A stretch of 61,842 bases of DNA, filler included. It is 6 parts of 6 records of this genome, joined end to end, with 100 filler letters (N's around TTAATTAATTAA, not from the genome) between each part and the next. Parts side by side here need not be neighbours in the genome. Positions count along the whole stretch, not along the records: positions 12,134 to 19,399 come from SRR22947727_2904; 5 more parts are not named here. The stretch is one strand, 5' to 3'. Positions 1,767 through 61,043 of this stretch are shown here, in pieces (position 1 is the stretch's first letter; every line of letters starts with the position of its first letter). The notes beneath the pieces are model-generated. The model saw only the letters and a program-made list of their open reading frames with translations, was not told the origin of the DNA and made no database searches. The position numbers and the translations under genes are program-made.

Positions 1767-3239
1767 TTATGGAAGTATATCCAAATAAGTATCAACATCC
1801 CATTGTGTGACAGCAGACAAAAACTTTTCCCACTCATCCTTTTTGTAATGCATAAATACTCTCAGCATATCTTCAGGAAGAGCAGCTTTGATTACATCAT
1901 CACTATTCAACCTCTCAATAGCCTCGCCAAGCGTCATCGGAAGTTTTTCAACTTCTTTTCCACCTTCCATTGCATCATAAATATTTTTTTTCTCTGGTTC
2001 CCCAGGATCAATTTTATTATCTAAACCATCAGCGAATGCTTTTAAAATTCCGGCTCCCATCAAATAAGGATTATGTGATGAGTCAACTGATCGGTACTCA
2101 ACACGACCAGGTGCTGATACTCTAACACTACAAGTTCTATTTTGATAACCCCAATCTGCATAAACAGGGGCCCAAAACCCAGTATCCCATAAGCGTCTAT
2201 ATGAATTTACTGTAGGTGATCCAAGACACGTTAATGCTGGTAAATGTTTAAGGAGTCCTCCAATGCTGTTGAGACCAACAGGACCTGGTTTAACAGCATC
2301 AATTTTTGGGTCAGGCATGAACATATTTTCCCCACCGTTTATATGTGTAAAAACTTGATCCATGCCTGGTAAGATTTTATTTCCAATTGGTGTAGATTTT
2401 AATTCACCACCTTTCCACAAAGATACATTAGTATGACATCCGTTTGCAGAAACACCCATAAACGGTTTACTCATGAAACATGCAATCAAATTAAATTCCC
2501 TTGCTACTTGAGCACAAATTTGACGATATGTAGTTAATCTATCTGCGTTTCGTAAAACATCGTCATACATAAAGTTTAATTCTAGCTGACCTGGCGCATC
2601 TTCATGATCACCTTGAATGACGTCAAGACCCATAGCTCGGCAGTAATCAATAACCTTCATATAAACAGGTCTTAAAGACTCAAACTGATCAATATGATAA
2701 CAATATGGTCTAGAGAAACCATCTCCAGTTGGTTCACCATTATCTTTTTTTGTTAACCACATCATTTCAGGCTCAGTTCCCGCACGCATATTCATTCCAT
2801 ATTTAGTTTGAAACTCATCTTGAATAATTTTTAAATTTCCTCGACAATCAGAAGTTAAATGCCCACCTGGATTTTCTTCTTCTTCTCTATTTCTAAAACA
2901 AGTACACCATACTCTCGCAACTCTTTTATCCCAAGGTAGTTGTACAAATGTATCAGGCTCTGGAATTCCTACAAGCTCTGAAGATTCTGGCCCGTAACCA
3001 ATATAGTCACCGTGTCTATCTACAAACAAATTTGCGGTCGCGCCATAAACTAACTGAAAACCTTTTTCAGCCATTGACTCCCAGTGATCTGCCGGAACAC
3101 CCTTACCAACAATTCTACCTGTAACAGAAACAAATTGATAATATATGTATGTTATTCCAAGCTCATCAATTTTTTTTCTTACGTCTTTAACTAATTTATC
3201 TCTACCTGATTGATTTACAAAATTTTCTAAATCTGTCAT
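1767..3239 (-). CDS. Glutamine synthetase-like gamma-glutamyl-amine ligase (GmaS/GlnT-like, divergent)
   Basis: GS catalytic motifs GTEPE, DHEDAPGQLELN, FMSKPF...NGCHTNVSL, NSYRRL, NRT..RV, RVEYRSVD..NPYL; operon with GATase and GXGXG genes. Confidence 0.85.
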   Translation of the reverse strand: MTDLENFVNQSGRDKLVKDVRKKIDELGITYIYYQFVSVTGRIVGKGVPADHWESMAEKGFQLVYGATANLFVDRHGDYIGYGPESSELVGIPEPDTFVQLPWDKRVARVWCTCFRNREEEENPGGHLTSDCRGNLKIIQDEFQTKYGMNMRAGTEPEMMWLTKKDNGEPTGDGFSRPYCYHIDQFESLRPVYMKVIDYCRAMGLDVIQGDHEDAPGQLELNFMYDDVLRNADRLTTYRQICAQVAREFNLIACFMSKPFMGVSANGCHTNVSLWKGGELKSTPIGNKILPGMDQVFTHINGGENMFMPDPKIDAVKPGPVGLNSIGGLLKHLPALTCLGSPTVNSYRRLWDTGFWAPVYADWGYQNRTCSVRVSAPGRVEYRSVDSSHNPYLMGAGILKAFADGLDNKIDPGEPEKKNIYDAMEGGKEVEKLPMTLGEAIERLNSDDVIKAALPEDMLRVFMHYKKDEWEKFLSAVTQWDVDTYLDILP

Positions 3240-3281
3240 TTTTACCCCCCCTTTAAAATATTAGTAACATTCAACAACAAA

Positions 3282-4628
3282 TTAACTCCACGGAAAAGGA
3301 CTATTTGAAGTTGGATGTAATTTACCTTGTTCATATCTTGAAAAACGAAAAGGCTCCAATAAAGAAGATTTCTCTCCTAAAACCTCATCTGCTACGAGCT
3401 TACCAACTCCAATCATTTTGTATCCATGATTTGAGTCAGCTATCATGTAAACATTTTCTCTAAATTGATCAAAAACAGGGAATGAGTCAGGTGTAAAACA
3501 ACCTAATCCTCCTGTTGCTCCTTTTTTAAACAAATGAGATTTTCCCTCAAATCTTTTATGGCAAAATGCTAATGCTGAAGTCCACATATCTCCGAACTCA
3601 TCACTAATTACAAAGTCAGCAGATTTAGGTCCATATGGATCAACGTTAATTCCTTCACCACCTGGTTGACCTACTTTATAAGGAGAGGCGCCACCTTGAA
3701 TGCCATTAAAATGAAAATCTGGTTTATAATAAATTCCCCATAACTTATCTGTGATTAAACTTTTATCTGTATCTGAATAAAGAGGCGCATCAGTATCCAC
3801 ATGAATAACTGGTGGCATATCACCACTATCAGTTTTAAGAAAATCTGGATCTACTCTTAACACCCCTTCAGTTAGCATCCAATAATGCCACATAGGTACG
3901 TTGGTATTCAATTTACCATCAGATCCTTTTATAGATATTTGATTAGGTAATTCTAACATATCCCAAAAAGACTTTGCCCAAGGTCCTGCTCCCACAATTA
4001 CGTGATCACATTTAATTAAACCTTTATCAGTTTCTACTCCCGTAACTGCACTTGAATTAGATCCATATTGAAAGCCTTTAACAGTTGTTCCAGTTAAGAT
4101 TCTTACTCCCTCTGCCTCGGCTTTATTTGCTAAGCCATATATAGCAGATGTATTGTTGGCATACCCACCTCGTTTCTCATGCAAAACACTCGTGATACCT
4201 TTAGCCTGCCAATCACCAAACATTTTTTTCATATAATTAGCAGAGTCTTTTTCGCCTTGAATGAATACTGAGTCATATCCAATATTTTTTTGCTGCGCAT
4301 ATATTTCAGCAACATCTTCTTCCATACATTCAGGACTAATTTGCATATACCCAACATCATGATAGTGGAAATTTTTTGCATCACTCTCCCATACATCTAC
4401 ACACAAAGCCATTAACTCTCTCATCGCAGGTTGATAATAATTATTTCTTACAACTCCGCAGGCTATACCACTTGCTCCAGCAGCAATACTATCTTTATCT
4501 ATCACAACAATTTTAGAGCCATCTCCTTTGCCTTTAGCTTTCAATTTAGCAGCAAGATGCCATGCAGTGCTTAGGCCATGAATACCAGCACCTATGATAA
4601 CGTAATCAACTTTTTCTGGAAAAGCCAT
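3282..4628 (-). CDS. FAD-dependent amine oxidoreductase (DAO/sarcosine oxidase beta/MgdA-like family)
   Basis: IIGAGIHGLSTAWHLA FAD-binding motif, GAGPW, FTPDSFPV, HGYKM, C-terminal PFRFSRY. Confidence 0.85.
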   Translation of the reverse strand: MAFPEKVDYVIIGAGIHGLSTAWHLAAKLKAKGKGDGSKIVVIDKDSIAAGASGIACGVVRNNYYQPAMRELMALCVDVWESDAKNFHYHDVGYMQISPECMEEDVAEIYAQQKNIGYDSVFIQGEKDSANYMKKMFGDWQAKGITSVLHEKRGGYANNTSAIYGLANKAEAEGVRILTGTTVKGFQYGSNSSAVTGVETDKGLIKCDHVIVGAGPWAKSFWDMLELPNQISIKGSDGKLNTNVPMWHYWMLTEGVLRVDPDFLKTDSGDMPPVIHVDTDAPLYSDTDKSLITDKLWGIYYKPDFHFNGIQGGASPYKVGQPGGEGINVDPYGPKSADFVISDEFGDMWTSALAFCHKRFEGKSHLFKKGATGGLGCFTPDSFPVFDQFRENVYMIADSNHGYKMIGVGKLVADEVLGEKSSLLEPFRFSRYEQGKLHPTSNSPFPWS

Positions 4629-4714: not shown

Positions 4715-5476
4715 TTAACTTTCTTGAAGTTTTTTTGAAATCATTTTAGCTGTATTAGTAACTCTATTAGCTAATTCAGGAACAGTTTTAACATTAATAC
4801 TTCCTTTAGTTCCTGAAATTGCAATTCCTGCGATTGCTCTATTTTGCATATCCATTATTGGTGCGCCGATTCCATATACATAATCAAATGTTTCAGCCTC
4901 ATTAAGACTATATCCATTTTTTCTAATTCTATCTAAATTTGCATATAACTTATCAAGAGAAGTTATTGTATTGGATGTATGTTTGTGAAGAGAGTAACTT
5001 TTATAAATCTCTCTTAACTCATCTCGTGATTTAAAAGCAAGAATTGCTTTTCCTAAAGCACAACTATGCGCATCTAGTCTCATTCTAAAAGCTCTTGGTG
5101 CATTTTCCCCTAAAGGATCAACTTTATCACAATAAACAATATGAGGACCTTCTAAGACAGCTAAATAAGTTATGTGATTAGTGTCATAAGATAGGTTTTT
5201 AATGTGCTCAAAACATAAAGTTGTAAGTGTTTTAAGAAAATCTGACTTGTCACCGAACTCAAATATTTTATGCCCTAACGTATATAAATTATTTGAAGTA
5301 TCTTTAAACACGTAACCAAGACTTGTAAGATAAGTTAAAATTCTAAAAGCTGTTGCCCTATCTAATTTTGTTATGGATGCCACTTGGCTTGCTTTAAGAG
5401 GTTTTGGTGATTTACCAACACATTCTATTATTGCCAGAGCTTTTTTTATTGATCCACTAAGATAATTACGAGTCAT
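4715..5476 (-). CDS. IclR-family transcriptional regulator
   Basis: N-terminal HTH (SIKKALAIIE...LDRATAFRILTYL..LGYV); C-terminal effector domain with HSCALGKAILA, GYSLN.E, GIGAPI, AIAISG. Confidence 0.93.
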   Translation of the reverse strand: MTRNYLSGSIKKALAIIECVGKSPKPLKASQVASITKLDRATAFRILTYLTSLGYVFKDTSNNLYTLGHKIFEFGDKSDFLKTLTTLCFEHIKNLSYDTNHITYLAVLEGPHIVYCDKVDPLGENAPRAFRMRLDAHSCALGKAILAFKSRDELREIYKSYSLHKHTSNTITSLDKLYANLDRIRKNGYSLNEAETFDYVYGIGAPIMDMQNRAIAGIAISGTKGSINVKTVPELANRVTNTAKMISKKLQES

Positions 5477-12133: not shown

Positions 12134-12203
12134 AAGCGGGTAGTGACGTGGGCGCCCGCGCTCTACAGTAATAAACTCGGTAGCACTTCGGCTCCACGTA
12201 TTT

Positions 12204-12915
12204 TCAGGGGCGGTTCCACTGGAAGCACTCCATCAAGTGACGGTATCTGTGGATTTTCAGGCTCTACACCGCTCTCAACGCACCCGAAATGTCACTTCCG
12301 GGCGGGTCCTGACAACCAACGCATCGGGCATCCAAGAAAAACCACCCCTGACTCGGGTTGAATTCTTTGTGACACCCGTATTCCGTGTTCGTATAGTGGA
12401 CCCACTAGACGCGGCCACTGCGGAAAAGTGGCTAGGAAGACCCCACCTTGCATTCGCAAACGGGATAGGCAGAGTCCGGTAGTGTTGGAATCTGCCGAAG
12501 GCGTCAGTCAGGACCAGTTTTGACGCAGCGGTCAGTGATGACCGGGTCCATCTTCAAACCGTCGCGGTGTTGCAAGTCCGGGTACCGCACCTTCCAAGCT
12601 CTCCCGCTGGTTACGGGGATCTGTTCCATAAGCGCTGTTAATGGCAGGGCACTCGTGCCCTGGCTATTCGACAGTTTCTTCAACCCGGCAAACGCCCTGG
12701 CGGTCAGTGCGTTCTGCTTTTTTCGAAAAAGGAGGTAAATCCACTCCAGCCTCAGGCTGGATAACCGTTGGTTGGCACGGGCCAGTTTTCATCTGGAAAC
12801 ACACGGTGCTGTCTATGGCCAGACACATTCAGGTCAACCGGGATTGGTGTCCCGTGATCGTACCGCACAGCGGACCTGCGCAGCTTCTGTTGCCAGGTGA
12901 TCAGAAACACTCACC
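12204..12915 (+). ncRNA. Candidate large structured RNA (or folded ssDNA element) upstream of a tyrosine-recombinase gene
   Basis: About 20 hairpins and nested long-range stems seen by eye, e.g. 12204-12215/12340-12351, AAGTGAC/GTCACTT, CGGTCA-GTGA-TGACCG, CAGGGCA-CTCG-TGCCCTG, TCCAGCC-TCA-GGCTGGA; only mutually overlapping non-protein-like short ORFs. Confidence 0.55.
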
Positions 12916-12930
12916 GAAGGAAACCACACT

Positions 12931-13179
12931 ATGCGAGACCTGAACTACCAACTGAAAATGCTGTGCAAGCACAGCCATGAAGGCAGCTTCGAAACCCGGG
13001 TGGGCCGGGAGCGACAACTCAGCGCCATCGCCAATCAGTTACACGACCTGGGCTTCCGGCAGATGAAGGCCACGTCACTCAAACAGAAGCATGTCCAGGC
13101 CCTGGTGGACCACTGGCTGGACCAGAATCTTTCTCCCGGGACTATCAAGAACCGGATGAGCTGTCTGCGCTGGTGGGCC
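12931..13179 (+). pseudogene. N-terminal SAM-like domain of a phage-integrase-type tyrosine recombinase (Phage_int_SAM_2/Integrase_1-type), catalytic domain missing
   Basis: MRDLNYQLKMLCKHSHEGSFETRVGRERQLSAIANQLHDLGFRQMKATSLKQKHVQALVDHWLDQNLSPGTIKNRMSCLRWWA resembles this family's N-terminus; AAGGA RBS at 12917; resemblance stops after RWWA. Confidence 0.8.
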
Positions 13180-13404
13180 GCCTTTGAGCATATCGAGGCG
13201 CGCAACCGCGCCGACAACGTGAGCCCATTTGATGCGCTCCTTAATCAGGGGGTTGAACCCGTGGCGCTCACCGATGCCGAAAAACAGGCCTGGCTGGCCA
13301 TGCAGCAGCCCGGTGAGGCGATGATGCAGAGCGAGGGCGGCTTATCCACGGCGGCGCTAGAGCGGATCAAGGCACTGGTCAGGGATTTCCGCCAGCAACA
13401 ATGA
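13180..13404 (+). pseudogene. dctP: C-terminal remnant of a TRAP substrate-binding protein (DctP), fused in frame to the integrase fragment
   Basis: AFEHIEARNRADNVSPFDALLNQGVEPVALTDAEKQAW resembles DctP C-termini; stop overlaps the dctQ start (ATGA), the normal dctPQM arrangement. Confidence 0.7.
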
Positions 13405-13889
13405 CTCTCCTGGCGCGGATCAATCGGCTTATTAGCTGGCTGGAAGACAGCCTGCTGATTGGATTGGTCGTGGGCCTGCTGCTGGTGGCGGTGGCTCAAA
13501 TTGTGTTGCGTAACGTTGCGGGCGAGGGGCTGTTTTGGGCCGAGCCCGCCATGCGTATTGCCGTTTTATGGATCGCCATGATTGGCGGCATGGTGGCCTG
13601 CCGCGAGGGCGGGCATATCAAAATTAATCTGTTTGATCTGTATGCGCAGGGCAGGGCGAGACGAGCACTGGCCGCTTTGGCGCATTTGGGCGCCTGTGGT
13701 ACCTGCGCGGCGCTGGCCTATGCAAGCTGGCTGTTTGTGGGTTACGAACGCATGGACGGCATGACTACGTTTTTGAACCTCCCCGCTTGGTGGTTTGAGA
13801 GTATTTTGCCGGTGGGCTTTGCCGTGATGACCCTGCGCTTTTTGCGCGATGCGGTGGCCATGCGCCCCCACGCCGACGAGGCGCCATAA
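13401..13889 (+). CDS. dctQ: TRAP transporter small permease
   Basis: Four TM segments, QIVLRN, WAEPAMR, GHIKINL motif, precedes dctM. Confidence 0.9.
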   Translation: MTLLARINRLISWLEDSLLIGLVVGLLLVAVAQIVLRNVAGEGLFWAEPAMRIAVLWIAMIGGMVACREGGHIKINLFDLYAQGRARRALAALAHLGACGTCAALAYASWLFVGYERMDGMTTFLNLPAWWFESILPVGFAVMTLRFLRDAVAMRPHADEAP

Positions 13890-13890
13890 G

Positions 13891-15173
13891 GTGCTCCTCA
13901 CCCTCGCCATTACGGCAGCACTCATTTTTCTTGCGCTCAGCGGCATGCCCATCTTTGCGGTGATAGCCGCCACCGCTTTGATTGGTTTTTACCTCTCGGA
14001 TATCGAGATCACGGTAGTGGCGATCGAGCTCTATCGCATTGTGGATACCCCCATGCTGGTGGCCTTGCCGCTCTTCACCCTGGCCGGTTATCTGCTGGCC
14101 GAGAGCAATGCATCACATCGCCTGGTGCGCACTGCACAGGCCGCCATTGGCTGGCTGCCCGGTGGGCTCGGCATTATTGCCCTCGTAACCTGCGCGTTTT
14201 TTACCGCATTTACCGGCGCATCGGGGGTGACCATCGTGGCGGTGGGTGCGCTTTTGTACCCGGCCCTGGTCAAGGTGGGGTTCTCCGACAAGTTCAGCCT
14301 CGGCCTGGTCACCAGCTCAGGGAGTCTGGGCCTGTTGTTAGCGCCATCTTTGCCGCTCATCTTGTATGGCATCGTGGCGCAGCAAACGGGCTTGGGCGAG
14401 CCGTTTTCGATTCAGGATTTGTTCATTGCCGGCTTGCTGCCTGCCGGCCTTATGGTGCTGCTGCTCTCACTGTGGGCCGTGTGGCAGCAGCGCGATCAGT
14501 GGCACCAACGGCAGCGTTTTACGGCGGCGGAACTCGGCGCTGCCCTGTGGGAGGCGCGCTGGGAGCTACCCCTGCCCTTTGTCGTCTTTGGCGGCATTTA
14601 CGCCGGGTGGTTGGCGGTGTCTGAAACCGCCGCGGTGGTGGCCCTGTACGTACTGATCGTTGAGGTGCTGCTCTATAAGGACATCACAGTGCGCGCGCTG
14701 CCCGATGTGTTTCGTAAGGGCATGATCATGGCCGGGAGCATTATTTTGATCTTGGGCGTGGCGCTGGCACTCACCAATATCATTGTTGATGCCGAGATCC
14801 CTGCGCGGCTGTTTGAGTTTGTGCAGCGGCACGTCGACAGCAAGTACACCTTTTTGATCCTGCTCAATATCTTCCTGCTGCTGTTAGGCGCGGTGCTCGA
14901 TATTTTCTCAGCGCTGGTGATTATGGTGCCGCTCATTTTGCCGCTGGCGGTGGGGTACGGCATCCATCCCGTGCATCTGGGCATTATCTTTTTGGCCAAC
15001 ATGCAGATCGGCTACATGACGCCACCTGTGGGCATGAACCTCTTTATTGCCAGCTACCGCTTTAAAAAGCCCATCACCGAGCTCTACAGCGCATCGCTCC
15101 CGTTATGATGATTCTGCTGATTGCCTTACTGCTCATTACCTATTGGCCCTGGTTGTCGTTGGGGTTCCTGTAG
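13891..15173 (+). CDS. dctM: TRAP transporter large permease, 1-nt frameshift near the 3' end (about 15103)
   Basis: GTG start at 13891; ALPLFTLAG, FTGASG, GSLGLLLAPS, IHPVHLGIIF, IGYMTPPVGMNLF; the final TM helix MMILLIALLLITYWPWLSLGFL* continues in another frame to TAG at 15171-15173. Confidence 0.85.
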
Positions 15174-15585
15174 AGCGAGTTGATGTCGCATATATATGTC
15201 AAATCTAGGCTAACTCAGTTTCCAACTGGCTTTTGGTTCCGTGTACCCCCAACGTTGAGAGCCATTGTTTAAAAAACACCAGATCTTTCCTGCGCTCGAT
15301 GTCTGTTTACTCTGGTTTCGCTCCAGCAATGGTTTTTTATTGATTGTCGCCTCATCTTTGCGCCCTAGCATTTTGAGGGCTTCCCAAGTTGCCCCGAAAG
15401 GGCCAGAAGTCGACAGTAAACCCGCCGCTCGACTTCAAAACCGCATGACCGATGTTCCTTGAATCATTGACTTAGCCTCTTGACTTCGAACGCTTGTTGT
15501 AAATATTGTTCGGCGAGCTTGTCCAAAAACAGTCAGCAGGCGGGCATCGCCGGCTGATGCAAATAAACAACAGGAGCCCCCACCA

Positions 15586-18126
15586 ATGCCTTCAAAACTT
15601 ACGAATCAGTTGAAAGCCCTCAGGAGCCCTTTGGCCTCGGCTACGGGCGCGGTTGTTCTGGCTGCCACCCAACTACCTGTGGCGCACGCACAAGTCACGC
15701 TGGAAGAGGTTGTTGTTACGGCGCGCCAACGTGCGGAGAGCATTTTGGATGTACCTGCATCGGTTACCGCATACTCTGAGTCAGAAATAACAGCCGCAAA
15801 TATTGACCGACCGTCAGATTTCATTATGAGGACGCCGGGCCTGTCTCAGGTGCAGACGGTGGAAGTTGGAGATATGCAGGTTAACGTCCGGGGTATCAAT
15901 TCCGGCCGCGACACTGAAAGTAGCGTAGCGCTTGTCGTGGACGGAGTGCTCCTTACCAACCCCAACGCACTTAATCAGGAGATGGACAACATTTCACAGA
16001 TCGAGGTGCTCAAGGGGCCTCAGGGCGCCATTTACGGTAGAAACGCGCTCGCGGGAGCCATCATCATCAGTACACAAAAGCCTCCGGAAGAATTTGAGGC
16101 CAACATCGAAGCCACCGCCGGGAATTTTGGCTTGGTGAAAGGCGCGGTTGGTATTGGTGGGCCGCTCTCAGACAACGCAGAGGGATTGTTGAGAATCTAT
16201 CATCGTGAGGACGACGGATCCTTTGATAACAGCTTTAAGGGATGTGATGATTGCGTGAATTTCCTCGAGGAAACTGGCGTCACAGGCCGGATTGTCTACA
16301 GGCCGACCGATAATATAGAGCTGGATTTCAAGGCGCGGTGGTCTGAAGTTAAAGCTGGTGGTGTTTCATTTAATGCCTCACTCGCACTAGCCGACGCCGC
16401 TGCGGCGGGCTTCGGCGATTTGTTCTACGAAGATGCAAATGATCATGAGTTCTACTACATCAATCTGAATGATCCCGATAACCAGCAGGAGACACTCAAT
16501 CTCTCCCTGCGTGGTGTTATTGATCTTGATTCAGGCGGTTCCGTGACCTTCTCCGCGTCATATAACGATGCTGAAAATTACTTTATGTCCGCGGGTACCA
16601 GTAACGCCTTCGGCATTTACAATGCAAACGAAGTTTGTCAGGAACAATATTACGCGGCGATCGATACGATTCCCGTACCGGCTCCATTTTTTTACACTCC
16701 TGACATCAGCGGCAGTTTCCTGCCCCCATATCCCCCAATAACTTGCGGTGGCTACCAGTATCAGCAGAGAGACCAGGAGGATATGGCCCTGGAGATCAGG
16801 TACGAGTCAAGCCAGGACCAAGACCTGAGATGGATGATGGGAGGCTACGTCGCCGACATTGATCGACGCTTGGTTGTTGCGTACGGCGGAGACCTCGGCC
16901 TCGGGCAGGACACTTTTCAGCTTGGCTTTGTGCCCGCAAGCGGACCTAATCCAACAGACCTTTTATACGATGACGATCTTCTGAGTACGGTTTACGCAGT
17001 ATTTGGCAGTGTTGACTTTGATATTACTGAGAAGCTGGAGCTAGGACTCGCTCTGCGCTACGACATAGAAGAGCGAGAAGTAAATAACAATGTTCCCAAA
17101 ATCGGCCCGCAAACACCGGGATTCGGAGCCTTTGGATTTCCGGTTTGTCCAAATGGGCCTGACGGCTGCTCTTACTACATCAATCCGTTTTATAACGCGA
17201 ATCAAGACGTAGCCTCTATCCCTTCCCGTGAGGAAGATTTTAGCCAATTACAACCCAAGGTGACGTTAAAGTGGCAAGCAAGTGACGCAGTGATGGCTTT
17301 TGCCTCCTACGGCGTTGGTTTCAGGAGTGGGGGATTCAACTCGTCTGGAACCTCGGCAACGCTCCAACAATTTTTTGGATCGCTGGCGCTAGCGGACGGC
17401 ACTAAGAATTTGAATGACCTTAGCGATGACTTTGATAAAGAGACATCAGAGGCTTTTGAGGTTGGTTTCAAGTCACGGTGGTTGGATGGCCGGCTACAAC
17501 TGAACGGTGCCCTCTACTACACTGAAATGGAGAATGCACAAGACTTCAGCTTCTTCGCAGGACCTTTTGGCTCCCTTCGAGTGGTCACGAATATTGATGA
17601 GGCAGAAATATTCGGGTTCGAGATTGATGGCAAATGGCTCATTAATGAGAATATCAGTGTTCATGGTGGTTACGGATCTACCGACACAGAGATCATTGCT
17701 TACAGCACGCGACCATACACTGCTGGAAACGACATGCCATATATTCCGGAGTACACGGGAAATATCGGTGCGGATCTGAACTTTCCCCTGAGTACTGGCT
17801 GGAATATCAGCGCTCGATGGGACTCGATGTTTGTGGGAGACACATGGTTCTCTCCGGTGCAGGATGACTACGTACCTAACTTTTTTACTGCCTTCGGTTT
17901 TGGGGGCGGTGAATTCACAAAGCAGAGGCGTGACAGTTTTGTTCGCCATGACGCAACGGTCAGTTTGAGCAAGGACAATTGGTCATTCCAGTTATGGGGA
18001 CGCAACATCACTGATGAGGAATATCTGGAGGAGGTGATTCCCGCGCCAGAATTCGGCGGATCCTTTATTCATGATACCTATGGCAGGACATACGGCATTA
18101 CCGTCCGATGGAACTATGGTGGTTGA
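15586..18126 (+). CDS. TonB-dependent outer-membrane receptor
   Basis: Signal peptide, TonB box LEEVVVTARQR, plug motifs VRGI and IEVLKGPQGAIYGRNALAGAI, GFRSGGFN, C-terminal GRTYGITVRWNY. Confidence 0.95.
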   Translation: MPSKLTNQLKALRSPLASATGAVVLAATQLPVAHAQVTLEEVVVTARQRAESILDVPASVTAYSESEITAANIDRPSDFIMRTPGLSQVQTVEVGDMQVNVRGINSGRDTESSVALVVDGVLLTNPNALNQEMDNISQIEVLKGPQGAIYGRNALAGAIIISTQKPPEEFEANIEATAGNFGLVKGAVGIGGPLSDNAEGLLRIYHREDDGSFDNSFKGCDDCVNFLEETGVTGRIVYRPTDNIELDFKARWSEVKAGGVSFNASLALADAAAAGFGDLFYEDANDHEFYYINLNDPDNQQETLNLSLRGVIDLDSGGSVTFSASYNDAENYFMSAGTSNAFGIYNANEVCQEQYYAAIDTIPVPAPFFYTPDISGSFLPPYPPITCGGYQYQQRDQEDMALEIRYESSQDQDLRWMMGGYVADIDRRLVVAYGGDLGLGQDTFQLGFVPASGPNPTDLLYDDDLLSTVYAVFGSVDFDITEKLELGLALRYDIEEREVNNNVPKIGPQTPGFGAFGFPVCPNGPDGCSYYINPFYNANQDVASIPSREEDFSQLQPKVTLKWQASDAVMAFASYGVGFRSGGFNSSGTSATLQQFFGSLALADGTKNLNDLSDDFDKETSEAFEVGFKSRWLDGRLQLNGALYYTEMENAQDFSFFAGPFGSLRVVTNIDEAEIFGFEIDGKWLINENISVHGGYGSTDTEIIAYSTRPYTAGNDMPYIPEYTGNIGADLNFPLSTGWNISARWDSMFVGDTWFSPVQDDYVPNFFTAFGFGGGEFTKQRRDSFVRHDATVSLSKDNWSFQLWGRNITDEEYLEEVIPAPEFGGSFIHDTYGRTYGITVRWNYGG

Positions 18127-18135
18127 CGCCAAAGC

Positions 18136-18166
18136 TTCCCGCCGGATTGCTTTAATCCGGTGGGAG
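18136..18166 (+). terminator. Strong hairpin after the TBDR gene (terminator or mRNA stabiliser)
   Basis: TTCCCGCCGGATT-gcttt-AATCCGGTGGGAG, about 13 bp with G-U pairs; weak U-tract. Confidence 0.55.
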
Positions 18167-18218
18167 CCTTATTGACAGCGTCTGATCTGTTTGCATTTGT
18201 TGGTTTGGAGATTGCGCC

Positions 18219-18905
18219 GTGAACCCTGCAGCCACTACAAAACCCTACACTAGAGCTGGCAAGCAGCCTCGGGCCGATGGTGAGAAAACGAAGGAGAGCA
18301 TTCTTGACGCGGCCGAATACCTGTTTTCGTATGGCGGCTTAGATGGCGTTTCGATTCGGCAGATAACGAAAAGAGCAAGCACTGACCTAGGATCCATAAA
18401 TTATTACTTTGGCTCAAAAATTGGACTTTTCAGGGCTGTGCTTATACGACGTGTAGCAGGCATGACAGAGCAGAGGCTGGAGTCGCTGTCGAAATTGCGG
18501 GCCGGATCAAATAAAAAAAATGCGATTCGAGAAATATTGGCTGCGTTTATTGCTCCTTTGTTCGGCGATAGCCCGGATCAGTGTGATCAATTGGCTAACT
18601 ATAGAAGGCTTGTAGCTTTGGTGGCCAATTCTAAAGCTTGGCAAGAAGAGGTGTTCAGGCAACACTATGATCAGGCGGCCGACCACTACATTGGTGCATT
18701 GTCCAAGCAGATGCCGGAGGTCAGTGTTGCGCAAGTGTGTTGGTACTTTAATTTTTTTCTTGGTGCGCTGACTAACTCCATTGCAGAGACAGGAAGGGTT
18801 GACAGGTTGTCCGGCGGCTTGTGCGAATCTGCCGACTTGGAAGATATGCAAAATAACTTGTTGAACGCAACTGTGCCTGCATTTATGGCATTACTGAGAA
18901 CATGA
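18219..18905 (+). CDS. TetR/AcrR-family regulator (PsrA-like)
   Basis: TKESILDAAEYLF...VSIRQIT..A..DLGSINYYFGSK HTH signature. Confidence 0.92.
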   Translation: MNPAATTKPYTRAGKQPRADGEKTKESILDAAEYLFSYGGLDGVSIRQITKRASTDLGSINYYFGSKIGLFRAVLIRRVAGMTEQRLESLSKLRAGSNKKNAIREILAAFIAPLFGDSPDQCDQLANYRRLVALVANSKAWQEEVFRQHYDQAADHYIGALSKQMPEVSVAQVCWYFNFFLGALTNSIAETGRVDRLSGGLCESADLEDMQNNLLNATVPAFMALLRT

Positions 18906-18944
18906 ACGGGCACTTTGGCTTTGGTGAGAAATGGAGGGGCAGTC

Positions 18945-19399
18945 GTGGCCAATCGAGACAATAATTTAGACATCGTAATCATTGGCGCGGGGTTTTCGGG
19001 CCTGTATATGCTCTATAAGTTGCGAAAAAGTGGCTACAGAGCACGAATATATGAGAAAGGCCATGGTGTCGGCGGTACCTGGTACTGGAATCGTTACCCT
19101 GGTGCAGGCAGTGATATCGAGAGCCTTGAATACTCTTACGGTTTTGATGATGCACTGCAGCAAGAGTGGGAATGGAAAGAGCGTTATGCCTCTCAGCCGG
19201 AACTCGAGAAATATCTGGAGCACGTTGCGGAACGATTTGACCTAAATAAGGATATTGTTTTTGGTCAGACCGTCGCCGGCTTGCAGTGGGACAAAGTCGC
19301 AGCTCAGTGGAGATGCGAGTTCGCTGATGGTGACGTAGTGGAGGCTCCTTATGTGGTCATGGCGACAGGGTTGCTTTCTGCTCCTAAGGCACCAGACTT
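18945..19399 (+). CDS. Baeyer-Villiger monooxygenase (cyclohexanone-monooxygenase family), truncated by contig end
   Basis: GTG start after GGAGG; IIGAGFSG, GGTWYWNRYPGA, DIES..YSY, ATGLLS. Confidence 0.9.
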
Positions 19400-56834: not shown

Positions 56835-58419
56835 TGGTGAAGAAATGTGTCCGGCCTTAGGGATTGCCATTCCCGTGGGTAAAGATTCTCTGTCCATGCA
56901 AACAAGGTGGAAGCAGGACGGCAAAGACAAAGCTGTTGTTTCGCCTGTTACGCTCATTGTTTCTGCTTTCGCGCCGGTAGTTGACGTGAATAACACTGTG
57001 ACCCCAGAGCTGGTAGACGATGAGAGCAGTGTGCTTGTGTTGTTAGATCTAGGGCCTAAACAACGTTTGGGCGGCAGTTGCTTAGCTCAGGTTTACTCTC
57101 AGATGGGAGACGTGACGCCCAATATTGATAATGTTGGCAGCTTTAGAGCGCTCCTAGAATTGATTATTCAAGGTAAGCGGTGGGGCGATTTCCTCAGCTT
57201 ACATGACCGCTCCGACGGTGGGCTCTTAGCCAGTTTGTTGGAAATGTCTTTTGCTGGACGCCTAGGCTTAGAGATTAATATTGACGCCAATGAAGCGTTG
57301 CTAGAAACCTTGTTTAATGAAGAGGCAGGGTTTGTTGTACAAGTTTCCAACGCCACCTATGCAATGTTAGAAGCCAGTGCGCCCGGGCGCTGCTTGCCCA
57401 TAGCGAAGATTCGCCAAGATGACAGAGTTGTTATCTCTCACGGCGATGAAGTGGTTGCTGATTATTCTCGAAGCGAACTGCAACAAACTTGGGCGAAGAC
57501 CAGTTATAAAATGCAAAGCATGCGCGACAGCGCCGCCTGCGCGGAGGAAGAGTTTTCTAGCATAGTCGCAAATCGAACTGACGATCCTGGCCTCAACGCC
57601 AAGCTGACCTTTGACCCCAGCGAAATACCCACTGTGCTAACAGGTGCACGCCCTAAAATTGCGGTCCTGCGCGAGCAGGGTGTCAATGGCCAGATTGAAA
57701 TGGCAGCAGCCTTTGATCGCGCAGGCTTCGACAGCGTTGACGTGCACATGTCAGACCTGATCAGTGGACGCTTTTCTTTAGACGAATTCCAAACTTTAGT
57801 GACTTGTGGCGGTTTCTCTTATGGCGACGTTCTAGGCGGCGGCGGTGGCTGGGCTAAGAGTGCGTTGTTCAGCCCTCAGGTCAGAGAACAGTTCGCCAAC
57901 TTCTTCACCAGCGACAAACTTACCCTAGGCGTTTGCAATGGTTGTCAGATGATGGCGCAAATGCAGGAACTTATTCCCGGTGCAGAAAACTGGCCGCGCT
58001 TTGTGCGCAACCGTAGTGAGCAATTTGAAGGCCGCACGGTAATGGTGAAAATTAATGACGTGCAAACGCCTTGGCTCAATGGCATGCAGGGCAGTGTAAT
58101 GCCCGTGGCTGTGGCTCACGGGGAAGGGCGGGCAGAGTTTGCTCACGGTGAACACTTGGCGGCATTGCAAAGTAATAATCAGTTAGCTATGCAATATGTA
58201 GATTCGCGTCACCAAGTAGCCAGCTTATATCCAGATAACCCTAACGGTGCTATTGAGGGCCTAGCTGGGCTAACGGCTGCAGATGGCCGTGTACTGATTA
58301 TGATGCCGCACCCAGAGCGCGTATTTAGGTCGGTGCAAAACGTTCACCGTGACGCCGCTTGGGGCGAAGATGGCCCTTGGATGCGCCTGTTTAGGAACGC
58401 GCTTAAGACGCTTTCTTAA
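56835..58419 (+). CDS. purL: Phosphoribosylformylglycinamidine synthase (large PurL), 5'-truncated
   Basis: IPVGKDSLSM, HDRSDGGL, LREQGVNG, GGFSYGDVLG, GVCNGCQ, MMPHPER. Confidence 0.97.
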
Positions 58420-58480
58420 AAAGAGTCTTTCCTTACCAGAGTTTTGGCTGATGTTTGGGCTAGGAGTATGAACCTGCTTA

Positions 58481-59023
58481 TCAGCTACGCCGCCGAAACA
58501 AAATGTCTTCGTAGTGGGTCGGGTACGTATCGTTCTGGCGATCTGTGAAATAGTATTCCAAGGTCTTATTGATCACCGGAAAAGCCAGTTCATCCCAGGG
58601 GATGTCCGCCTCGCTGAATAACGCGACTTCTAACGATTCAGTACCACTACTGAACTCTAAATCTGCTAAGTCAGCGCGAAAAAACATATACACCTGAGAG
58701 ATGTGCGGCAAACTGAATATCGTATATAGCTGCGAGTTTTCTAGCCTCGCATTAGCCTCTTCCAAGGTCTCGCGAGCCGCGCCTACTTCTACGGTCTCAC
58801 CGTTTTCAAGAAACCCTGCGGGCAGGGTCCAGTAACCTTTCCTGGGTTCAATGGCGCGCTTACACAAAAGTACCTGATCTTTCCAGATCGGCAGGGTGCC
58901 TGCGATAACCCGCGGGTTTACGTAGTGGATGGTTTTGCACACGGTGCAAACTGAGCGAGGGCGCGTATCGCCTTCGGGGATTATTTGTTCAGCGGCTTCG
59001 CCGCATAGGCTGCAAAATTTCAT
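58481..59023 (-). CDS. NUDIX hydrolase with N-terminal zinc ribbon
   Basis: FCSLCG...CTVC..IHY.NP, Nudix box [18 protein letters not shown]. Confidence 0.92.
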
Positions 59024-59205
59024 CAAAGCAGTATACCCATGCTCGGCTCATTCCGGCAGGTAATGGTGAAAACATTTCTTAATTCTTTGGCAAGGTTATT
59101 GATCTGCACGCACGCAAGAACGCCGGGATAAAACATCCACTTCAAATGGAGTATTGGCGTCACCTTCATTAACATGAGCGTTGTTTTTAAATTAGGGGTT
59201 CAAGG

Positions 59206-59751
59206 GTGTTGTATCAATTAGGTGATCTTGAGGTGCGCGCAGAGGGTGACTATTGGGTAGCTGATAATGCTGTGGTGCTGGGTAATGTGTTGCTTAAGCA
59301 AGACGCCAGTGTTTGGTTTAACGCGGTTTTGCGCGGGGATAACGACCTCATCACTGTTGGCAAGGGCGCGAATATTCAGGACGGTTCTGTGCTGCATACA
59401 GACCCAGGGTATCCACTGAATATTGGCGCTCATGTAACTATTGGCCATAAAGTCATGTTGCATGGCTGTGACATTGGCGAGGGTTCGCTAATCGGTATCA
59501 ATGCGGTTGTGTTAAACGGCGCGAAGATTGGCAAAAACTGCATTATTGGCGCCAACGCGTTGATAACCGAGGGCAAAGAAATTCCCGATAACTCCATGGT
59601 TATGGGCTCTCCGGGCAAAGTTGTGAAAACCTTGACCGATGAACAAGCCGCTGGCATTCGAATGGGCGCGGCCCATTACGTAGAAAACGCGCGTCGCTTT
59701 CGCGAGACGCTAAAAGTCCAGCCTCAAGCGGTACCGAGCAGAGAAGCCTAA
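59206..59751 (+). CDS. Gamma-class carbonic anhydrase-like protein (YrdA/PaaY family)
   Basis: [26 protein letters not shown], hexapeptide repeats. Confidence 0.92.
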
Positions 59752-60950
59752 TGACTGAACATTCTGAAGCAATCTCCATAGGCACGCCGTTATCCTCTTC
59801 AGCGACTAAGGTCATGATGCTGGGCAGCGGTGAGCTGGGTAAGGAAGTAGTGATTGAGCTACAGCGATATGGTGTAGAAGTCATTGCAGTTGACCGCTAT
59901 GCCAATGCGCCGGCTATGCAGGTGGCGCACCGAAGTCATGTCATTGATATGCTCGATGGCGATGCTTTGCGCGGCGTTATTGAGTTAGAAAAACCAGATT
60001 TGGTGGTGCCTGAGATAGAAGCCATTGCCACGGCTACACTGGTCGAGCTAGAAGCCCAAGGACTAAATGTTATTCCAACAGCCAAGGCGACTAAGTTGAC
60101 TATGGACCGGGAGGGCATTCGTTGCCTTGCCGCCGAAGAGTTGGGCGTTAGGACTTCTCCGTATAAGTTTGCCGACAGCGAGGCCGATTATCTTCAGGCG
60201 GTTGAAGAGATTGGTTTCCCCTGTGTGGTTAAGCCTGTCATGTCCAGTTCTGGCAAGGGGCAAAGTACTTTACGCGGTCAAGACGATGTTCAAAGTGCCT
60301 GGACCTATGCCAAGGAAGGTGCCCGGGGCACGGGCGGTAAGGTCATTATTGAAGGGTTCGTTGATTTCGATTACGAGATAACCCTACTCACCGTTCGGCA
60401 CAGAGATGGCACCAGTTTTTGTCAGCCAATTGGCCACCGCCAAGAGGGCGGGGACTACAAAGAGTCGTGGCAACCACAGCCCATGAGTTCTAAAGCGTTA
60501 CTTGAGAGTCAACAAATTGCACAGAAAGTCACAGGTGCTTTAGGCGGCTTGGGGCTGTTTGGTGTTGAATTCTTTGTCAAAGATGACTTGGTATATTTTT
60601 CTGAAGTCAGTCCCAGGCCCCACGATACTGGTTTAGTCACGCTCATTAGTCAGGATTTGAGTGAGTTTGCGCTGCATGCCCGAGCCATATTAGGCCTGCC
60701 TATTCCAGCCATTAAGAACCATGGGCCAGCGGCCTCGGCAGTTATTATTGTTGAGGGCAGTTCAAGCGAGGTGTCTTTTGGTAATCTGCATCAAGCGTTG
60801 TCGCAAGAGGATACTCAACTGCGATTGTTTGGTAAGCCTGAGGTAGAGGGCGAGCGGCGCATGGGGGTTGGTTTGGCGCTGGGTGAGAGCACTGACCAGG
60901 CGCGAGAAAAGGCTTTTGCGGTGGCTAGTGCTGTGGAGATCGTTCTTTAG
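59751..60950 (+). CDS. purT: Formate-dependent GAR transformylase
   Basis: [10 protein letters not shown]-type motif, [35 protein letters not shown]. Confidence 0.97.
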
Positions 60951-61043
60951 CTGTGCATTAGCCGCCCGTTAGATGCTTTTATAGCGTTGCCTGTAGGGTC
61001 AGCCTTTGTGGGACGAAGTTGGCGAAAGGGGGTGGCTAGAGGC

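Follow-up and report, generated by a model that had tools for sequence, protein, structure and literature searches.

Does the hairpin-rich DNA ahead of a phage-type tyrosine recombinase gene encode an RNA, and what would such an RNA have to do with the recombinase? The question is raised by one contig of the window, by which we mean the whole stretch of DNA analyzed (61,842 nucleotides), a chain of contigs joined by N linkers. The contig of interest starts at position 12134, directly after a linker, and carries the beginning of the recombinase gene, with its ATG at 12931. A prediction made from the sequence alone (the original prediction) had placed a ~710-nt element here, from 12204 onward, and had offered two readings of it: a large structured RNA partnered with the recombinase, or a folded single-stranded DNA (ssDNA) element. 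By comparison with related loci we arrive at a shorter element of ~527 nt (12404-12930) and at the first of these readings, which is favored by covariation, a bias toward G-U pairs, RNA-type tetraloops and a constant position upstream of homologous recombinases. The region is predicted to encode a conserved, multi-domain structured RNA on the + strand, with 23 helices, two pseudoknots included. It forms part of a three-part module that consists of an inverted-repeat site, a promoter followed by a leader of ~450-550 nt, and the gene for a tyrosine recombinase of the Integrase_1/Phage_int_SAM_2 type.

Comparative evidence for a structured RNA upstream of the recombinase gene

We searched one genome per species with the 83-residue N-terminus of the recombinase and kept the best 80 of 101 relatives (L001-L080), which come almost all from Halieaceae; several genomes contribute two or more copies, and some of the copies sit at the ends of contigs. 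All 80 loci found in this way, via the protein, show similarity upstream of the gene. About 600 nt ahead of the ATG are conserved as well as the coding sequence, and the last 170 nt more so, at 90-95% identity. From these loci we built an alignment of 54 non-redundant copies (A1), leaving out 11 loci with too little upstream DNA and 5 in which the upstream region is interrupted. The curated structure of A1 comprises 23 helices (one drawn as a pseudoknot) with 126 pairs in all; 95.5% of its cells are paired, and shifting the 3′ partners by 1-3 columns lowers this to 33-42%. Changes on both sides were seen in 35 of the 126 pairs and in 126 cells, and none of 500 shuffles reached any of the five measures used. 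RNAalifold, applied to the same alignment, returned 104 pairs, 21 of them with compensatory changes. A second alignment (A2), restricted to the 3′ domain and with seven divergent copies added, gave 41 pairs, 95.7% of them paired and 15 changed on both sides, and again 0 of 500 shuffles reached these values. Over A1 and A2 together, the slid-partner controls gave 30-44% paired, against 95.5-95.7% for the real partners. The conservation and covariation that the original prediction had called for upstream of homologous recombinases are thus both present.

Folding energy alone is weak evidence, with z-scores near -2 on both strands of 12404-12930 (-2.07 on + and -1.76 on -, 100 shuffles), and so it is the covariation that carries the case for structure. 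The expectation that the element would fold better than shuffled sequence therefore holds weakly for 12404-12930 and fails to the left of it, where the + strand of 12135-12403 folds no better than its shuffles (z +0.71; 74 of 100 fold as well). Likewise, the claim that nearly all of the sequence pairs stands from ~12404 on, where A1 supports it, and falls to the left. Two long stems proposed there are poorly kept in 12 related copies: 12235-41/12291-97 retains only 2-6 of its 7 pairs, and 12204-15/12340-51 only 6-10 of its 12. Across 44 variants of the spacer we found no general pairing partner (mean best pairing 8.1 vs 7.5 shuffled). The interval 12134-12403 is consequently outside the RNA and holds one arm of the inverted repeat, a variable spacer and the promoter.

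Within the RNA, the alignment backs the hairpins first seen at 12413-33, 12564-88, 12688-717, 12745-61 and 12810-25, the hairpin CAGGGCA-CTCG-TGCCCTG, and the GAAGA/TCTTC stem (12436-40/12551-55) that closes four hairpins. Two other stems had to be redrawn. The one around the CAGGGCA hairpin is GCTGT 12634-38/ACAGT 12671-75, not the stem from CTGTT 12621, and ACCTG 12874-78 pairs with CAGGT 12894-98 instead of CAGGT 12830.

The strand assignment, earlier made from G-T pairs in a single sequence, was borne out by A1, in which 95.5% of cells are canonical when read on + and 88.5% on -, and which holds 545 G-U cells against 85 A-C cells. Hairpin loops are of the GNRA type in 34 of 52 and 29 of 52 rows and C(UUCG)G in 9 of 52 rows. 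Because G-U cells far exceed A-C cells and such loops are common, we favor a + strand RNA. The region is judged non-coding from its sequence, in agreement with the earlier view that no credible coding sequence lies between the contig start and the ATG: five open reading frames (ORFs) in 12143-12940 matched no Pfam family, and close copies in A1 differ by one-base, frame-shifting indels within hairpin loops.

A few candidates were set aside. A naive helix scan and mutual information with average product correction were dominated by clade signal and were not used as evidence. The long-range pairing of the conserved GGAGG with CCUUC drawn by RNAalifold was dropped, as inspection of A1 by eye showed no compensation where CCUUC varies, and so was a pairing between a loop and the Shine-Dalgarno sequence (UUGGUG/CACCGA), which by eye is lost in L092 and L084. 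GATC 12856-59 has two indistinguishable partners, GGTCA 12832-36 and GATC 12899-902; changes on both sides occur in the second only.

Predicted promoter, limits and possible expression of the leader

A consensus scan of 12135-13420 returned a sole promoter-like site, a sigma-70-like promoter that is conserved in A1 and whose -10 box is replaced by TATACT or TAAACT in divergent lineages. Transcription is predicted to start near 12404. The same scan found no + strand terminator before the ATG, so that by its result the leader and the gene share a strand and a promoter with no terminator between them, the arrangement of a cis-acting 5′ leader.

Seventeen runs recorded as RNA contain part of the stretch, and four of them, from four studies, were examined as assembled contigs. 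These cover 12526-12750 (identical to the window), 12636-12868 (one difference), 12322-12893 (from a relative), 12421-12695, 12699-12919 and 12797-12995. The last one crosses the boundary between leader and coding sequence, although it may stem from carried-over DNA. The interval 12135-12309 is uncovered in these four runs.

Features of the module

The coordinates of the features are collected in Table 1. In the 5′ pseudoknot, the three pairs of the stem are canonical in all 52 distinct rows (inner pair C-G in 41 and U-A in 11), and the loop pairing (helix 1) is 99.7% paired, with CCACA/TGTGG and CCACG/CGTGG variants in divergent lineages. The junction of domain I is five-way if its closing stem is included, with hairpins at 12441-65, 12468-96, 12501-26 and 12530-43. 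This domain holds the second pseudoknot (helix 8), GGACC 12511-15/GGTCC 12545-49, which is 98.4% paired with two pairs changed on both sides. Helices 10-15 of the middle domain are 84-97% paired and include 17 pairs with changes on both sides. Between the middle and 3′ domains stands AAGGAGGT(G), fully complementary to the 3′ end of 16S rRNA, ~195 nt before the real start codon and with no conserved start codon after it; it is found at the same place in L081, L084, L088, L090-L092 and L094. It is possibly a ribosome standby site or a decoy.

The helices of the 3′ domain lie at 12775-80/12804-09, 12785-90/12795-800, 12810-14/12821-25, 12839-44/12849-54, 12856-59/12899-902, 12863-66/12870-73, 12874-78/12894-98 and 12880-84/12889-93. 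This domain also includes the conserved CAGAAACACTCACC and the Shine-Dalgarno sequence of the recombinase, GAAGGA 12916-21, and in Halieaceae it ends 10 nt before the ATG.

Table 1. Features of the recombinase module and of the sequence that follows it, in window coordinates.
Feature	Position	Strand	Remarks
Inner half of the inverted repeat	12134..12153	.	Spacer half AAGCGG and right arm GGTAGTGACGTGGG (12139-12152); the contig begins inside the repeat
Variable spacer, repeat to promoter	12154..12368	.	37-58% identity to the window vs 70-95% downstream
Sigma-70-like promoter	12369..12397	+	GTGACA-17 nt-TATAGT, 10/12 consensus matches; consensus scan
Structured leader RNA (predicted), ~527 nt	12404..12930	+	5′ end predicted; 3′ limit put at the recombinase ATG
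5′ pseudoknot	12410..12432	+	Stem CGC 12410-12/GCG 12420-22; loop GCCACT 12414-19 with AGTGGC 12427-32
Domain I	12436..12555	+	GAAGA 12436-40/TCTTC 12551-55 closing a junction; helices 2-9
Middle domain	12564..12717	+	Hairpins 12564-88, 12602-19 and 12688-12717; 12634-38/12671-75 enclosing 12645-62
Conserved single-stranded AAGGAGGT, Shine-Dalgarno-like	12729..12736	+	GAG invariant in A1; AAGGAGGTG in divergent lineages
Hairpin CCAGCC-TCA-GGCTGG	12746..12760	+	Helix 16, 97.4% paired
3′ domain (model R1)	12761..12921	+	A2 alignment; R1 matches upstream of homologous recombinases
Recombinase codons 1-83, Integrase_1-type	12931..13179	+	Pfam; N-terminal domain only, catalytic residues all absent here
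Unrelated in-frame tail, 74 aa, leading into DctQ and DctM transporter genes	13180..13404	+	

Linkage of the RNA to a recombinase family

The protein encoded at 12931 had been likened to the N-terminal part of the Phage_int_SAM_2/Integrase_1 recombinases, and this likeness is confirmed by Pfam, which places Phage_int_SAM_2 at residues 1-81 (E 2.2e-18). Its full-length relatives are 288 amino acids (aa) long and carry both domains. Their catalytic residues (R, K, H-x-x-R, H and Y) sit past residue 140 and are invariant in 12 of 12 aligned homologues: the R of AFGLRREE, the K of WxKGG, HGLRH, the H of LGH and the Y of VYLG. Distant homologues with 44-60% aa identity occur on plasmids, small ones included, of Neorhizobium, Acinetobacter ursingii, Shewanella putrefaciens and Halioglobus pacificus. 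Searching with the DNA of 12135-13179 gave one 101-nt coding match only among plasmids and none among phages; one IMG/VR contig contains the 41-nt conserved stretch.

Starting from the RNA, blastn of the leader found five further genomes among 400 sampled from the class, with matches that span only the 3′ 90-125 nt. Four of them adjoin recombinases of 58-65% identity, and the fifth (L089) has a broken recombinase gene. We then used R1, a covariance model of the 3′ domain with 162 positions, which matched 10 of 151 sampled genomes of the order, upstream of Integrase_1-type recombinases of 55-88% identity. R1 scores upstream of homologous recombinases range from 18 to 191 bits, with 18-34 bits for the copies at 55% aa identity. 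Right after the match, 21 loci (the 20 R1 loci and L089) showed a full-length Integrase_1 gene in 12 cases, a partial one in 3 and none in 6. We read the downstream DNA at the seven loci without a full-length gene that comprise these six and L113. Decayed recombinase genes were recognized at L089 (into which an IS3-type ORF is inserted), L103 and L113, no gene at L109 and L117, and weak matches at L106 and L111.

Divergent lineages, at 62-67% aa identity, retain the repeat, the -10 box, the 5′ pseudoknot and the 3′ domain, with compensatory changes, and nhmmer detects the 5′ end of the RNA in divergent loci (E 2e-14 to 6e-5 in four). The plasmid copy of H. pacificus scores 18.1 bits with R1; against the Gallibacterium, Acinetobacter and Shewanella plasmids R1 gave no convincing match (best 7.6 bits). 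A motif before the ATG, AA(A/C)ACU-N-A(C/G)C, is retained in Neorhizobium and Gallibacterium, and in Neorhizobium it is all that is kept. The order of repeat, long leader and recombinase extends to distant plasmids. Stretches of 1.6-2.1 kb without annotated genes lie upstream of the recombinase homologue in L095 (1-1640), L097 (1331-2992) and L119 (391-2501). Such gene-free stretches on small Gallibacterium, Shewanella and Neorhizobium plasmids may hold divergent leader RNAs.

A candidate recombination site

The left edge of the conserved module is an inverted repeat, with left arm CCCACGTCACT, 14-16 nt, and then AGTGACGTGGG. Its right arm (with at most 1 mismatch in 14 nt) was found in 51 distinct contexts among L001-L080, ~640-800 nt upstream of the ATG. 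There is almost no variation in the inner arm and the inner spacer half; the outer arm is variable, with uncompensated changes, and to the left of it all loci differ. Divergent lineages have a symmetric variant, CCCTCGTCACT...AGTGACGAGGG, and the core GTCACTACC..GGTAGTGAC recurs 500-870 nt upstream of the homologues on Neorhizobium, Acinetobacter, Shewanella and Halioglobus plasmids, with arms of 13 bp around an 8-bp spacer in Neorhizobium and a spacer of 5-7 nt in Acinetobacter. A complete chromosome with one recombinase copy holds one good repeat site only. We infer from these sequences that the repeat is a candidate lox-like core DNA site of the recombinase, and the start of the contig at 12134 would then be an assembly break where left flanks diverge.

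In 12 of the 80 loci, an IS91-family transposase gene (Zn_Tnp_IS91 and Y2_Tnp domains) lies to the left of the repeat, e.g., at 3030-4037 (- strand) of L004, and 8 of these 12 loci share the IS91-side sequence that abuts the outer arm. This context suggests exchange at the repeat or one-ended rolling-circle mobilization. L068 holds a second copy of the repeat at an IS91 end, without the RNA module.

Possible functions of the RNA

Few structured bacterial RNAs exceed 400 nt, and the ones whose nature has been worked out are ribozymes or RNA-protein machines. For the RNA described here, we give an even chance to its being a new cis-acting leader of the recombinase mRNA, a reading drawn from the sequence comparison. 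Transcription would proceed from the sigma-70-like promoter and the RNA would form the 5′ leader of this mRNA, whose fold around the stretch that immediately precedes the Shine-Dalgarno sequence and the ATG would set the amount of recombinase in cis. The leader may be responsive to the binding of some factor, for which the recombinase is itself a candidate. Most likely, the enzyme would act on the upstream inverted repeat. As each module has a single site, the system would serve resolution or module exchange and would be distinct from the tRNA integrase of the island.

Several observations weigh against the leader being a simple regulator in cis. With 527 nt, two pseudoknots and a 3′ end of 170 nt that is near-invariant (90-95%, more than the coding sequence next to it), the RNA greatly surpasses known cis-regulatory leaders in size and complexity, and an RNA-protein particle or a ribozyme fits at least as well. 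We could demonstrate neither a ligand nor a switch nor a sequestered ribosome-binding site. Copies that score 87-127 bits are still found with no matching recombinase gene next to them (L109, L117) or beside a broken one (L089, L103). Conversely, in L024 (1066-1323), L070 and L078 (~4930-5000) the leader is reduced to its final ~70 nt, from GG(A/G)CCTGCGCAGC on, with unrelated sequence before it, so that the body of the RNA is not indispensable for the presence of the gene. The spacer of the Halieaceae repeat, at 10-16 nt, is longer than the 6-8 bp usual for core sites of tyrosine recombinases. As to expression, the RNA-library coverage consists of assembled contigs, for which DNA carry-over is possible, and two of these contigs begin at 12322, upstream of the predicted start. 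Separately, L024 shows a tandem duplication that contains an N and was probably produced by the assembly.

A less probable reading, although one that deserves real weight, casts the RNA as a cofactor or scaffold that stays on the mRNA or is cleaved from it. It would bind the Integrase_1 recombinase, and recombination at the repeat would require it or be under its control, for instance in assembly, direction or timing. Its size and complexity are those typical of RNA-protein particles, the single-stranded motifs are near-invariant, and the 3′ domain exceeds the adjacent coding sequence in conservation. The link between RNA and recombinase persists down to 55% aa identity, distant plasmids keep the spacing of 500-870 nt between site and gene, and the motif before the ATG survives in Neorhizobium and Gallibacterium. 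On the other hand, no tyrosine recombinase is known to require an RNA, the DNA site of this family looks conventional, and the RNA body is absent at three loci. Nor does the RNA appear to choose the target. Among 53 non-redundant loci, 39 have a tRNA gene at most 3.5 kb away (Met 14, Lys 13, Arg 12), and no column of A1 predicts its class (maximum 0.50 of 1.58 bits). Because no column tracks it, the RNA would not be a guide to the tRNA site, and the guide function entertained in the original prediction is not upheld for that site. In the strongest form of the cofactor reading, which we hold for rather doubtful, the ~520-nt fold would be an obligatory partner of the recombinase, made in cis and licensing or directing recombination at the upstream repeat. 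If true, this would be the first tyrosine recombinase to work as an RNA-protein particle, from marine gammaproteobacterial islands to small plasmids.

It is also unlikely, in our estimate, that the leader releases an independent or processed regulatory RNA, stable and acting in trans or on its own transcript in the manner of c4/CI, that controls island genes in place of the recombinase gene or along with it. The only Rfam near-match in kind is isrK, at 12833-12890 (17.7 bits, E 0.45), which is far under the gathering score of 50. Copies that outlive their recombinase gene would suit such an RNA, as would the contigs of two RNA runs that are internal only (12526-12750 and 12636-12868), but neither a terminator nor a processing signal nor a complementary target was found in the leader, the one loop/Shine-Dalgarno pairing tried by eye being lost in divergent copies.

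We give very little credence to a folded ssDNA element, such as a transfer origin, single-strand origin or attachment substrate. Covariation fits RNA and ssDNA alike, and the element lies in mobile DNA beside a recombinase. Against it stand the frequent GNRA and C(UUCG)G tetraloops, a promoter in the right place and on the right strand, two pseudoknots with a five-way junction, the separate candidate DNA site 500-870 nt upstream of the ATG and, weakly, the RNA-library contigs over the region. Finally, chance hairpins or a decayed protein gene, for which one could cite the modest folding z-scores on both strands and a 100 aa ORF that overlaps 12641-12943, can be dismissed, given the covariation controls passed in A1 and A2, conservation with compensatory changes at 55-67% protein identity, the lack of any Pfam match and the frame-shifting indels in hairpin loops.

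If the RNA does no more than tune recombinase synthesis, it would be an unusually elaborate leader; if the recombinase needs it, the view of tyrosine recombinases would change. Its role is directly testable: the protein partner is defined, there is a candidate for the DNA site, carriers have been cultured (Haliea, Pseudohalioglobus, Chromatocurvus and others), and the copies differ enough in sequence for the structure to be modelled.

The window copy and its island setting

Similarity between the window and 79 of the 80 related loci ends at 13178-13180, from which we conclude that the recombinase gene of the window is cut after codon 83. The 74-residue tail that follows in frame has no Pfam match, and the junction 13179/13180 was found in none of the 80 loci. 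From the sequence, this breakpoint would be either a real rearrangement (a deletion or insertion junction) or an assembly chimera. The window copy is thus a remnant, with the RNA intact and the gene truncated. G+C content is 49-60% at 12134-19000 and ~50% at 57000-61000, compared with 20-38% in most other parts of the window, and the contig that starts at 12134 is probably foreign to the genome bin. The G+C-rich pieces of the window resemble contamination of the bin by Halieaceae-like bacteria.

In Halieaceae, the recombinase gene is followed by an ORF of 115-119 aa, then by a Phage_integrase-family gene of 377-387 aa and a tRNA gene on the other strand. The small ORF matches phrog_13517 and, weakly, an excisionase/regulator family. 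The module thus sits at the tRNA-proximal end of genomic islands, where the second, P4-type integrase adjoins tRNA-Met, tRNA-Lys or tRNA-Arg. Within 10 loci we found no direct repeats of the tRNA end of at least 12 nt, and hence no island ends by that route. L033 (1-7380) and 12 other loci (L025, L027, L028, L034, L037, L038, L042, L044, L045, L051, L052 and L053) are 99.7-100% identical over at least 3.5 kb, and over 7.2 kb or more if the locus is long enough, although their genomes are labelled with different genus names. These islands carry an RND efflux transporter and thioesterase-like genes as cargo and end at tRNA-Arg(ACG). Such identity across genera indicates that they have recently spread horizontally. 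The module marks the boundary at which cargo differs between otherwise near-identical islands, and this bears on how islands are assembled.

Comparison with known RNAs and recombination systems

The RNA belongs to no Rfam family. A permissive cmscan of 12135-13500 against Rfam 15 returned only isrK and TCV_Pr (16.2 bits; gathering score 40), neither of which reached its threshold, and this agrees with the earlier statement that the element is not a tRNA, rRNA, tmRNA, RNase P RNA or group II intron. A search of the literature, with supplementary files outside it, found no description of this RNA or of the repeat.

The large non-coding RNAs of bacteria, GOLLD, ROOL, HEARO, OLE and raiA, exceed 400 nt, have many helices and are often found in mobile DNA. 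The present RNA shares their size class, number of helices and association with mobile DNA, but it matches none of them in Rfam and lies right against the start codon of one particular protein gene. Leader-derived regulatory RNAs of ~80 nt are known from phages P1 and P4 (the c4/CI antisense RNAs) and from Gifsy-1 (isrK). They resemble our RNA in lying within the operon leader of a mobile element, isrK being the closest Rfam near-match, and differ from it in that isrK stays well below its gathering score and that no complementary target repeats were found here.

On the DNA side, the Cre-loxP, ResD-rfsF and XerCD-dif/cer systems combine a tyrosine recombinase gene with a single nearby inverted-repeat core site. 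The module is similar in its single nearby repeat, in having homologues on small plasmids and in the 13-bp arms and 8-bp spacer of Neorhizobium. It differs in the longer spacer of Halieaceae, and a sequence search of the PDB with the full-length recombinase gave no matches, so that no PDB relative is at hand by sequence. To our knowledge, none of these systems has a long structured leader between site and gene.

A parallel in layout is the bridge RNA of IS110/IS621, a structured non-coding RNA just upstream of the recombinase gene (bioRxiv 10.64898/2026.10.21.760802). Here, too, a structured RNA lies directly upstream of the recombinase gene of a mobile element, but the partner is a tyrosine recombinase (Phage_int_SAM_2 and Integrase_1), not a DEDD/IS110 protein, the RNA is ~3 times longer, no column tracks a tRNA target, and an inverted-repeat site of the kind read by proteins is present.

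STAXI (RF01728), the catalogued motif nearest in character to ours, is a small pseudoknot in 2-3 repeats, found in Enterobacterales near XerDC-type integrase and DNA-handling genes in mobile islands (PMC2864571). Its function is given there as unknown; the choice between RNA and ssDNA, which we also faced, was raised for it, and RNA was favored on account of its UUCG loops (Weinberg et al., 2010, PMC2864571). Our cmscan gave no match to STAXI at E up to 10. Both are pseudoknotted non-coding structures near integrase genes in mobile islands, whereas the element described here is one ~527-nt multi-domain fold with a fixed place as the leader of one recombinase family.

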